Shown here: positions 10,724-13,811 of the stretch, piece by piece
How positions within the stretch are numbered: position 1 is the stretch's first letter
Layout of the letters: each line of letters starts with the position of its first letter
Source: Eledone cirrhosa
Taxonomy: Eukaryota
Length of the DNA stretch: 64,000 nt
Assembly (NCBI GenBank): GCA_964016885.1
Contig: OZ024740.1
Coordinates: 394,072,001 to 394,136,000, forward strand
Direction: 5' to 3'
The notes under the pieces: model-generated
Told to the model about the DNA's origin: nothing
Databases searched by the model: none
The model's input: the letters and a program-made list of their open reading frames with translations, nothing else
Made by a program: the position numbers and the translations under genes

Positions 10724-11144
10724 TGTATATATATAGTAAGCAAAAAAATTAGTAATTAACCTATACACACACACACACACACACACACACACACACACAC
10801 ACACACACACACACACACACACACACACACACACACACACACACACACACACACACACACACATATATATATATATATATATATATATATAAATGAAAGG
10901 TATAGAAATTGTTTTAGCGAGAAGCTAATAGTATTCCATAACATATATGCGACTATGGCGTCAAGATGGGAAAAATAGTTAACGTAAGATGTAGGAAAAA
11001 TAATTCAAACTCATCTCAAAAGAGAATCAGGATATAAATTCATCCACAGAATTTAGTGAAATCCAGGGAAAAATCAATAGAGCCTTAACTCATGATAAAA
11101 TAAAGTCTAAAATACTTATCCATCAATTTGGAAAAACATCAAAT

Positions 11145-11224
11145 GCTCTGTATAGTCTTAAAGACTATCTCATGAAAACTTTCAGTGGAGATGGTCACGG
11201 CTGGATTTCAATCGTCAGCAGAGC
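11145..11224 (-). ncRNA. Type I hammerhead ribozyme, array 1 copy 1 (GAAA>GAGA, probably inactive)
   Basis: As copy 2 but with A14G. Confidence 0.75.
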
Positions 11225-11772
11225 TCAACCAGATAACCAGGACTCTCACAGATTTATAAGCCAAAAAGGGAATTTTAAAACTGGTTAGTTTACCATCATG
11301 CGTGATTATGAAAAACGCAAACGAGGAAAACAGGGCTAGTGACGTCAGAATGAAATGAATGTTTGTTTACAAGAAATAACAGTGAAATACATTCCGAAAA
11401 AAAACTCTACAAAAGGAGTTCAGCAAAAAGCAATATTATCACAGATTTTATAAAAAAAAACCGGGTTAGTCACAAATAATTTAAGCATTCTAGGAAAAAA
11501 ATCCGAGTATAAATATATAAATGAAAGGTATAGAAATTGTTTTAGCGAGAAGCTAATAGTATTCCATAACATATATGCGACTATGGCGTCAAGATGGGAA
11601 AAATAGTTAACGTAAGATGTAGGAAAAATAATTGAAACTCATCTCAAAAGAGAATCAGGATATAAATTCATCCACAGAATTTAGTGAAATCCAGGGAAAA
11701 ATCAATAGAGCCTTAACTCATGGTAAAATAAAGTCTAAAATACTTATCCTTCAATTTGGAAAAACATCAAAT

Positions 11773-11852
11773 GCTCTGTATAGTCTTAAAGACTATTTCA
11801 TGAAAACTTTCAGTGGAGATGGTCACGGTTGGATTTCAATCGTCAGCAGAGC
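11773..11852 (-). ncRNA. Type I hammerhead ribozyme, array 1 copy 2 (intact core)
   Basis: GCUCUG-CUGACGA-U-UGAAA..UUUCA-U-GAAA-UAGUCU-UUA-AGACUA-UA/CAGAGC: stems I, II, III all pair; cleavage after AUA. Confidence 0.85.
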
Positions 11853-12397
11853 TCAACCAGATAACCAGGACTCTCACAGATTTATAAGCCAAAAAGAGAA
11901 TTTTAAAACTGGCTAGTTCATCATCATGCGTGATTATGAAAAACGTACATGAGGAAAACAGGGCTAGTGACGTCAGAATGAAATGAATGTTTGTTTACAA
12001 GAAATAACAGTCAAATACATTCCGAAAAAAACTCTACAAAAGGAGTTCAGCAAAAAGCAATATTATCACAGTTTTTATAAAAAACCGGGATTAGTCACAA
12101 ATAATTTAAGCACTCTAGGAAAGAAATCCGAGTATAAATGTATAAATGAAAGGTATAGAAATTGTTTTAGCGAGAAGCTAATAGTATTCCATAACATATA
12201 TGCGACTATGGCGTCAAGATGGGAAAAATAGTTAACGTAAGATGTAGGAAAAATAATTGAAACTCATCTCAAAAGAGAATCAGGATATAAATTCATCCAC
12301 AGAATTTAGTGAAATCCAGGGAAAAATCAATAGAGCCTTAACTCATGATAAAATAAAGTCTAAAATACTTATCCATCAATTTGGAAAAACATCAAAT

Positions 12398-12477
12398 GCT
12401 CTGTATAGTCTTAAAGACTATTTCATGAAAACTTTCAGTGGAGATGGTCACGGTTGGATTTCAATCGTCAGCAGAGC
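12398..12477 (-). ncRNA. Type I hammerhead ribozyme, array 1 copy 3 (intact core)
   Basis: Same as copy 2. Confidence 0.85.
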
Positions 12478-13024
12478 TCAACCAGATAACCAGGACTCTC
12501 ACAGATTTATAAGCCAAAAAGGGAATTTTTAAACTGGCTAGTTTACCATCATGCGTGATTATGAAAAACGCAAACGAGGAAAACAGGGCTAGTGACGTCT
12601 GAATGAAATGAATGTTTGTTTACAAGAAATAACAGTGAAATACATTCCGAAAAAAAACTCTACAAAAGGAGTTCAGCAAAAAGCAATATTATCACAGTTT
12701 TTATAAAAAAAACCGGGTTAGTCACAAATAATTTAAGCATTCTAGGAAAAAAATCCGAGTATAAATATATAAATGAAAGGTATAGAAATTGTTTTAGCGA
12801 GAAGCTAATAGTATTCCATAACATATATGCGACTATGGCGTCAAGATGGGAAAAATAGTTAACGTAAGATGTAGGAAAAATAATTGAAACTCATCTCAAA
12901 AGAGAATCAGGATATAAATTCATCCACAGAATTTAGTGAAATCCAGGGAAAAATCAATAGAGCCTTAACTCATGGTAAAATAAAGTCTAAAATACTTATC
13001 CTTCAATTTGGAAAAACATCAAAT

Positions 13025-13103
13025 GCTCTGTATAGTCTTAAAGACTATTTCATGAAAACTTTCAGTGGAGATGGTCACGGTTGGATTTCAATCGTCACAG
13101 AGC
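13025..13103 (-). ncRNA. Type I hammerhead ribozyme, array 1 copy 4 (C3 deleted)
   Basis: Forward TCGTCA-CAGAGC lacks one G. Confidence 0.7.
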
Positions 13104-13649
13104 TCAACCAGATAACCAGGACTCTCACAGATTTATAAGCCAAAAAGGGAATTTTAAAACTGGCTAGTTCACCATCATGCGTGATTATGAAAAACGCACA
13201 TGTGGAAAACACGGCTAGTGACGTCAGAATGAAATGAATGTTTGTTTACAAGAAATAACAGTCAAATACATTCCGAAAAAAAACTCTACAAAAGGAGTTC
13301 AGCAAAAAGCAATATTATCACAGTTTTTATAAAAAAACCGGGTTAGTCACAAAGAATTTAAGCACTCTAGGAAAAAAATCCGAGTATAAATATATAAATG
13401 AAAGGTATAGAAATTGTTTTAGCGAGAAGCTAATAGTATTCCATAACATATATGCGACTATGGCGTCAAGATGGGAAAAATAGTTAACGTAAGATGTAGG
13501 AAAAATAATTGAAACTCATCTCAAAAGAGAATCAGGATATAAATTCATCCACAGAATTTAGTGAAATCCAGGGAAAAATCAATAGAGCCTTAACTCATGA
13601 TAAAATAAAGTCTAAAATACTTATCCTTCAATTTGGAAAAACATCATAT

Positions 13650-13729
13650 GCTCTGTATAGTCTTAAAGACTATTTCATGAAAACTTTAAGTGGAGATTGT
13701 CACGGTTGGATTTCAATCGTCAGCAGAGC
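13650..13729 (-). ncRNA. Type I hammerhead ribozyme, array 1 copy 5 (intact core)
   Basis: Core and stems as copy 2; changes only in loop II. Confidence 0.85.
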
Positions 13730-13811
13730 TCAACCAGATAACCAGGACTATATATATATATATATATATATATATATATATATATATATATATATATATA
13801 TATATATATAT

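Follow-up and report, generated by a model that had tools for sequence, protein, structure and literature searches.

A TA-flanked 626-bp tandem repeat with a hammerhead motif, probably a non-autonomous Penelope-like retrozyme

The window, that is, the whole 64-kb stretch of DNA analysed here, is animal DNA rich in microsatellites. At 10890-13749 it holds a tandem array (Array 1) of four units measuring 625-628 bp plus a shorter fifth one (355 bp), with unit starts at 10890, 11518, 12143, 12770 and 13395 and the array end at 13749. Pairwise identity between the copies is 96.8-98.9%, the GC content of the unit is 0.325, and no further copy of it was found within the window. TA tracts adjoin the array on either side: to its left (AC)n(AT)n, to its right (TA)n. 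The features of the array are as follows:

10765..10891, no strand: left flank, (AC)n then (AT)n microsatellite; its TA tract merges into the fixed end of the element
10890..11517, minus strand: copy 1, 628 bp, A type; 3'-most on the ribozyme strand
11145..11224, minus strand: hammerhead of copy 1; GAGA for GAAA (A14G, plus-strand C at 11169), substrate strand intact
11518..12142, minus strand: copy 2, 625 bp, B type
11773..11852, minus strand: hammerhead of copy 2, intact; predicted cut 11779/11778
12143..12769, minus strand: copy 3, 627 bp, A type
12398..12477, minus strand: hammerhead of copy 3, intact; predicted cut 12404/12403
12760..12778, minus strand: TA-rich unit junction, as an example; others lie before 11518, 12143 and 13395
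12770..13394, minus strand: copy 4, 625 bp, B type
13025..13103, minus strand: hammerhead of copy 4; C3 missing (plus-strand G absent between 13097 and 13098), substrate strand intact
13395..13749, minus strand: copy 5, 355 bp; the 5' end on the ribozyme strand, stopping 20 nt upstream of the ribozyme
13650..13729, minus strand: hammerhead of copy 5, intact, with two changes in loop II; predicted cut 13656/13655
13749..13821, no strand: right flank, (TA)n microsatellite

The fixed end of Array 1 meets (TA)n 261 nt downstream of the cut site and the other end is truncated. All four internal junctions fall at one and the same point of the unit, and these TA-rich junctions have letters identical to those of the boundary between element and microsatellite; the junction may be the site of priming. 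No target-site duplication is readable inside the microsatellite. A frame for reverse transcriptase (RT) and GIY-YIG endonuclease (EN) is absent from the unit, and tblastn with the local RT/EN gave only a match of E=5.5 in the array. The longest frames of the unit have 91-94 codons; the one of 91 codons, on the plus strand over the ribozyme, was rejected as coding because it had no Atlas match and is broken by a 1-nt insertion common across the family.

Every unit has a type I hammerhead on its minus strand, and copies 2, 3 and 5 have it intact. These three have a 6-bp stem I, the CUGACGA and GAAA boxes, a stem II made of a U-U mismatch at 10.1/11.1, 5 bp and a 28-nt loop, and a stem III made of A15.1-U16.1 and 6 bp with a 3-nt loop, and cleavage is predicted after A17. 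The marks of the type (CUGANGA and GAAA boxes, a UH cleavage site, three helices, an open stem I) are thus present in all three, but a stable stem II closed by G10.1-C11.1 is not, its place being taken by U-U. Both A14G and loss of C3 would be expected to inactivate a hammerhead. The first-pass annotation had proposed a hidden hammerhead in this repeat, with copies 2, 3 and 5 intact, GAGA in copy 1 and C3 lacking in copy 4, and a fresh reading of the anatomy upheld each of these points in the sequence. When one unit was dinucleotide-shuffled 20,000 times and both strands were scanned, no shuffle yielded a motif with stems I and III of at least 6 bp and stem II of at least 4 bp, whereas 61 yielded a loose hammerhead motif. 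Rfam gave 0 matches at the gathering score over the whole window, and over 11700-12600, up to E=10, it gave 3 matches, none to a hammerhead family; the long loop II is the likely cause of the miss.

Folding predictions for this motif are uneven. In the 2D fold ensemble, stems I and III form with a probability of about 1, the central pair of stem II has a probability of 0.08 (copies 2 and 3) to 0.23 (copy 5), and the full active fold takes up 3% (copies 2 and 3) or 9% (copy 5) of an ensemble whose model does not include tertiary contacts. No loop I-loop II or other tertiary contact was identified in the Array 1 hammerhead. It had been argued earlier that the stable stem III implies monomeric cleavage. 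Stem III does form in the prediction, but with so weak a stem II and so small a share of active fold, fast monomeric cutting is not implied. The large-helix-III ribozymes of fungal Penelope-like elements (PLEs), which according to excerpts of PMC4209133 cleave as monomers, lend support to the earlier reading. An axolotl motif with the same U-U was 22% cleaved in one hour as a monomer and cut better as a dimer (excerpts of PMC7229834), and 8 of 9 predicted Xenopus retrozyme dimers showed no cleavage in vitro (excerpts of bioRxiv 10.64898/2026.07.22.740005). From these models and precedents, the likeliest outcome is probably slow cleavage, either as a monomer or as a strand-swapped dimer.

Strand swapping bears on the products as well. 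Stem III and its loop form a 17-nt near-palindrome, and the strand-swapped stem III duplex is predicted at -17.4 kcal/mol against -4.8 per hairpin, a comparison that ignores the cost of bringing the copies together. Both lesions (copies 1 and 4) lie in the enzyme half, and the substrate strand is kept in 5/5 copies. Since the substrate strands are intact and stem III is nearly palindromic, an intact neighbour could cut the 'broken' sites of copies 1 and 4 in trans, which would remove the 1252-nt product. Cuts at the three intact copies would give products of 1252 and 625 nt; this monomer/dimer prediction, also made in the earlier annotation, holds if only intact copies cut and only in cis, and does not follow from the sequence itself. 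The predicted circle shows only modest structure, with a z of -2.3 against 40 shuffles, and the opposite strand does nearly equally well (z -2.1).

Public sequencing runs place the array in a wider population. One Array 1 unit was matched in 11 of the 14 listed runs, with a best share of 0.49; no RNA run was among them, which says nothing either way on expression. Four of the 14, X1 and X12 among them, were mapped to a reference made of the rotated unit 11960-12584 (X2 and X3 come from the same sample as X1). Organism A contributed 1,826 matching contig pieces (X1) and 3,630 matching reads (X12); organisms B and F gave 7 and 2 pieces, and the unit junction is crossed over 352 letters by one of those from organism B. 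Family copies carry many variants and differing flanks, as seen in X1 pieces and X12 reads. The Array 1 unit therefore belongs to an abundant dispersed multi-copy family, and since the family is abundant elsewhere, a northern signal could not be assigned to the Array 1 locus. The 'satellite' of the first-pass annotation is indeed a tandem array, but rather than a usual satellite it is one short insertion of a dispersed family.

The X12 data, which are RAD reads and may derive from few loci, also inform on where family copies begin and end. Among the 16 listed of 273 loose ends, 208 reads enter the unit at 12133 from a TA-rich loose end, 223 leave it at 12458 and 159 at 12482, which suggests that one end, anchored at TA, is fixed in many copies and that these copies stop close to the ribozyme's 5' side. 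Across one restriction fragment, X12 depth falls from about 970 (12380-12400) to about 230 (12506-12526), and X1 has several-fold more depth over about 330 nt at the 3' end of the unit than over the remainder. X12 depth shows no step at position 12403, the cut site, which implies that copying used templates either uncleaved or re-joined there. Pile-ups of X12 read ends at 12160, 12258, 12303, 12378, 12381 and 12527 coincide with AATT sites and were taken as library cuts, and back-jumps of about 608-624 in the mapping were rejected as evidence for tandem copies, being uninformative because the reference was a rotated unit cut inside the spacer. A pattern scan of metagenome contigs gave 0 matches.

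Conservation can be read from the same mapping. The 80-nt ribozyme contains not one of the 40 substitutions listed out of 148 (p about 0.004 if they were uniform), and the stretch 12260-12359, outside the ribozyme, is likewise without a listed substitution on the same 40 of 148. One listed indel lies within the ribozyme, at 12412 in loop III (321/955 reads). Judged on the 40 of 148 substitutions listed, the family as a whole appears to conserve the core together with stems I and III.

The copies of Array 1 retain a record of how the array grew. Of 32 variable columns among them, 8 group copies 1 and 3 against 2 and 4 and none groups them otherwise (p about 5e-4 by hand, 1e-3 without one gap column). 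In three of the 8 alternating columns, copies 1 and 3 carry the non-family allele, and at column 233, a single informative site, copy 5 has the family allele and not the allele derived in copies 1 and 3. The array pattern is thus A-B-A-B-C, and the simplest history is an A-B-C insertion, divergence of its units, a DNA duplication of A-B and then private changes; this history does not account for column 117, at which the family allele is found in copy 1 and in no other copy. At 12 of 19 examined positions the allele common to all copies is in the minority in organism A, and therefore the Array 1 copies derive from a single source variant, or else organism A is a relative. Each lesion occurs in a single copy, and the two are in opposite phases; accordingly they arose after the duplication or are errors, and they are not the cause of the two-unit period; a dead ribozyme as the origin of that period was rejected for the same reason, with lesions in copy 1 only and in copy 4 only.

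Taken together, the array is probably one insertion of a non-coding, non-autonomous PLE of the non-LTR retrozyme kind, with its ribozyme (minus) strand as the sense strand of the element. Retrozymes are defined as hammerhead tandem repeats and have been linked to the terminal repeats of PLEs (excerpts of bioRxiv 10.64898/2026.07.22.740005 and PMC7229834), the criterion in the former being a minimum of two successive units that bear a complete type I ribozyme. Array 1 fits this definition on sequence, with consecutive intact copies 2 and 3 in a non-coding, dispersed repeat of GC under 50%. As excerpted from the same two sources, animal non-LTR retrozymes, like it, consist of head-to-tail repeats that are non-coding, have a single type I hammerhead in each unit and a GC content below 50%, number few units per locus and coexist with PLEs. 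The unit of 626 bp is longer than the 170-400 nt given there for invertebrate retrozymes and lies within the 51-972 bp range of Li et al. (excerpts of bioRxiv 10.64898/2026.07.22.740005). Stem III (7 bp) and loop II (28 nt) are also longer than in canonical retrozymes. Newt satellite 2 and axolotl HHR_Amex2 are likewise tandem 'satellites' with a hammerhead, and HHR_Amex2 has the U-U mismatch of Array 1 with weak cleavage as a monomer and better cleavage as a dimer (excerpts of PMC7229834). Unlike Array 1, both have 330-350 bp units, a very short stem III and tens of thousands of tandem copies. Our search of the literature, in which few subscription journals were covered, found no description of the Array 1 family or of cephalopod retrozymes.

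Under this retrozyme reading, the minus strand would be transcribed and slow self-cleavage would release a unit-length RNA, which a host ligase may circularise, by analogy with the retrozymes of coral, mussel and axolotl. The endonuclease of a PLE, most likely of the Hydra clade, would nick a (TA)n tract, whose TA end would pair with the UA-rich junction of an RNA that is multimeric or circular; more than one unit would then be copied by the reverse transcriptase, which would read through the ribozyme site. After the insert had decayed, a DNA-level duplication of a two-unit block would give A-B-A-B-C, and the cores of copies 1 and 4 would be lost later still.

The Hydra clade is the leading candidate as source of the helper enzymes. 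Excerpts of Craig et al. 2021 (PMC8557442) describe several traits that these PLEs share with Array 1, namely insertion at (TA)n in almost all Hydra families, a stem II with U-U at its base in 14 of 25 families (our own count from File S2), a ribozyme on the sense strand (25/26 rows of File S2) at a few hundred nt or less from the 3' end, and cleavage after A, predicted for Array 1 and common among Hydra-clade ribozymes. A 5'-truncated, frameshifted Hydra-type PLE lies 15 kb away in the window at 28598-30621 (RT 28598-30031, GIY-YIG to 30621). Its Atlas neighbours are RT-type eukaryotic clusters, the Pfam match to GIY-YIG is weak (E 0.0065, below the cut-off), a CxCx5C linker and Hydra-clade RT motifs were recognised by eye against excerpts of Craig et al. 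(PMC8557442), and the element resembles Hydra-1_Obim, a likeness that, together with the 190-bp interspersed repeat described below, hints at an octopus as the host. The TA insertion, the U-U base and the proximity of this RT/GIY-YIG element together favour a Hydra-clade helper.

Other observations count against it. Our own scan found no ribozyme in the Hydra-type element (28293-31950), and Naiads, according to excerpts of PMC8557442, target (TA)n too. An autonomous parent was not found, as matches of the unit to the remaining ribozyme elements and a Neptune-like 3' region did not exceed 15 bases, no match to the ends of the Hydra-type element was among those listed, and 3 of its short exact motifs were absent from the PLE consensus files of PMC8557442. 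Array 1 also differs from Hydra-clade PLEs in having no ORF and no sequence match found to a described family, and its stem III and loop II are longer than any listed for Hydra ribozymes (3-4 bp and 3-10 nt in excerpts of PMC8557442). A Naiad origin was considered and rejected: the halves of a 'half core' lie 35-50 nt apart, but the boxes are in opposite order and no likeness was seen (one octopus Naiad 3' end, by eye).

The contrast with minimal PLE ribozymes drawn in the earlier annotation stands for the length of stem III only; the U-U base and the TA targeting match Hydra-clade PLE ribozymes. The minimal hammerheads also have a palindromic stem III that allows dimer pairing, as in Array 1, and those of fungal and protist PLEs, which cut as monomers, have a long stem III without recognisable tertiary contacts, as does Array 1. 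Array 1 differs in lying in an animal genome and in having no G10.1-C11.1 pair, which is called highly conserved (all in excerpts of PMC4209133).

Whether the ribozyme is still active is a separate matter from its origin. It is possible, although we regard it as doubtful, that Array 1 is a fossil in which a PLE-descended ribozyme no longer cuts and an inert minisatellite has grown by unequal exchange, a reading that concerns present activity and is compatible with the same origin. Two of the five cores are broken, stem II is weak, the minority alleles at 12 of 19 positions indicate that the locus may be old or from a side lineage, and most predicted retrozymes that were tested failed to cleave (excerpts of bioRxiv 10.64898/2026.07.22.740005). 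Against this, the core and stems I and III seem to be conserved in the family at large, and the axolotl retrozyme with a U-U stem II base was still 22% cleaved in one hour (excerpts of PMC7229834).

The unit could also be the 3' terminal repeat (pLTR) of a still-autonomous PLE, with the array produced by repeated template jumps and 5'-truncated copies and no circular RNA, which we judge unlikely. Partial tandems truncated at the 5' end are usual in PLE insertions (excerpts of PMC8557442), retrozymes and pLTRs are related in Xenopus (excerpts of bioRxiv 10.64898/2026.07.22.740005), and the greater depth of the 3' about 330 nt in X1 is in line with such truncation. However, four internal junctions at one point do not resemble random truncation, the organism B piece crosses the same junction, and a coding remnant is absent, given that the 91-codon frame fails on the grounds stated above.

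Assembly or consensus errors are a still less probable source of the broken copies or the two-unit pattern. Each lesion is confined to a single copy, as an error would be, but neither lies in a homopolymer, 7 of the 8 alternating columns are substitutions, and the assembly can render repeats without noise, as in Array 2 of the same window (35039-36721), where 0 differences were found over 1,092 bases. Finally, an extension of the idea in the earlier annotation is very improbable, namely that a dimeric circle of 1252 nt, formed because one ribozyme of the pair had died, served as template for rolling-circle reverse transcription of the whole array in a single pass. Although the two-unit period is real (8/8 shared columns), a 1252-nt product is predicted and axolotl has multimeric retrozyme RNAs (excerpts of PMC7229834), a dead template ribozyme should recur in every second copy, the lesions are in copies 1 and 4 only and in opposite phases, and copy 5 has no derived allele of copies 1 and 3 at column 233, which is one informative site.

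Hammerhead tandem repeats are a described class, so that one more family is no surprise and the value of this probable PLE-type retrozyme lies in its use as a test case. The fixed TA end, the identical junctions and the lack of a depth step bear on whether retrozymes are copied from a circle or from an uncleaved multimer, and the natural neighbourhood of intact and broken copies allows a simple test of cis against strand-swapped cleavage. Ribozymes with long loops escape standard searches, and such elements may be undercounted.

A relaxed ribozyme scan of the window gave 9 matches in four families, namely Array 1 (3), Array 2 (3), 32548-33376 (1) and 52011-52754 (2). The three families besides Array 1 all lie next to TA tracts, in support of the retrozyme reading. 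In three of the four, the distance from the cut site to a downstream TA tract is 234-257 nt; the 32548 element shares its nine terminal letters at the tract with Array 1, and three families have a long loop II, the fourth being short-looped. It is conceivable, though on balance doubtful, that the genome holds a large undescribed population of (TA)n-targeted retrozymes with loops II of 28-50 nt that are invisible to Rfam and to descriptors with short spacers and have a UA-rich junction priming TPRT on circular RNA with Hydra-clade enzymes. If true, a (TA)n-retrozyme population that primes on circles would offer a direct test of the rolling-circle route proposed for PLE and retrozyme tandems.

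Array 2 has a 591-bp unit in 2.85 copies flanked by (TA)n, and its minus-strand hammerhead has a U3-A8 core, a variant on record (excerpts of PMC4209133), a stem III that is palindromic and a loop II of great length (57-nt spacer). Its sequence suggests that it inserted recently and makes it a stronger candidate for activity than Array 1. The third ribozyme family (32548-33376) has a unit of about 470 bp followed by a partial repeat, 7-bp stems I and III, and an inverted copy at 33093-33376 with changes in the ribozyme core. The fourth (52011-52754) is a near-perfect inverted pair with a minimal hammerhead in each arm (52289 minus, 52474 plus) and U-U at the base of stem II, and has a truncated copy at 47081-47420. 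Both of these elements have an inverted 5' copy, which is typical of PLEs (excerpts of PMC8557442).

The region of the Hydra-type PLE (28293-31950) is bounded by 312-bp direct repeats at 28293-28604 and 31623-31950. Inserts of about 200 bp that are flanked by TA and end in a strong inverted repeat (32318-32510, 48935-49135 and 51415-51620) are possibly truncated-plus-inverted PLE ends. PLE remnants at 58472-58798 (minus), 24113-24340 (plus) and 48309-48527 (minus) comprise two GIY-YIG-like frames, recognised by eye, and one RT fragment (tblastn E 5e-6). At 62880-63650 (minus) lies the 3' end of an RT-type frame with a DUF6451 match, probably a non-LTR retrotransposon. A short repeat at 13820-13985, directly after the right TA tract of Array 1, recurs by eye after a TA tract at 27985-28125. 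An abundant 190-bp interspersed repeat, possibly an octopus SINE, is found in many places, with two copies at 10326-10739, just left of Array 1, and a 40-bp minisatellite of 7 copies occupies 17611-17896.
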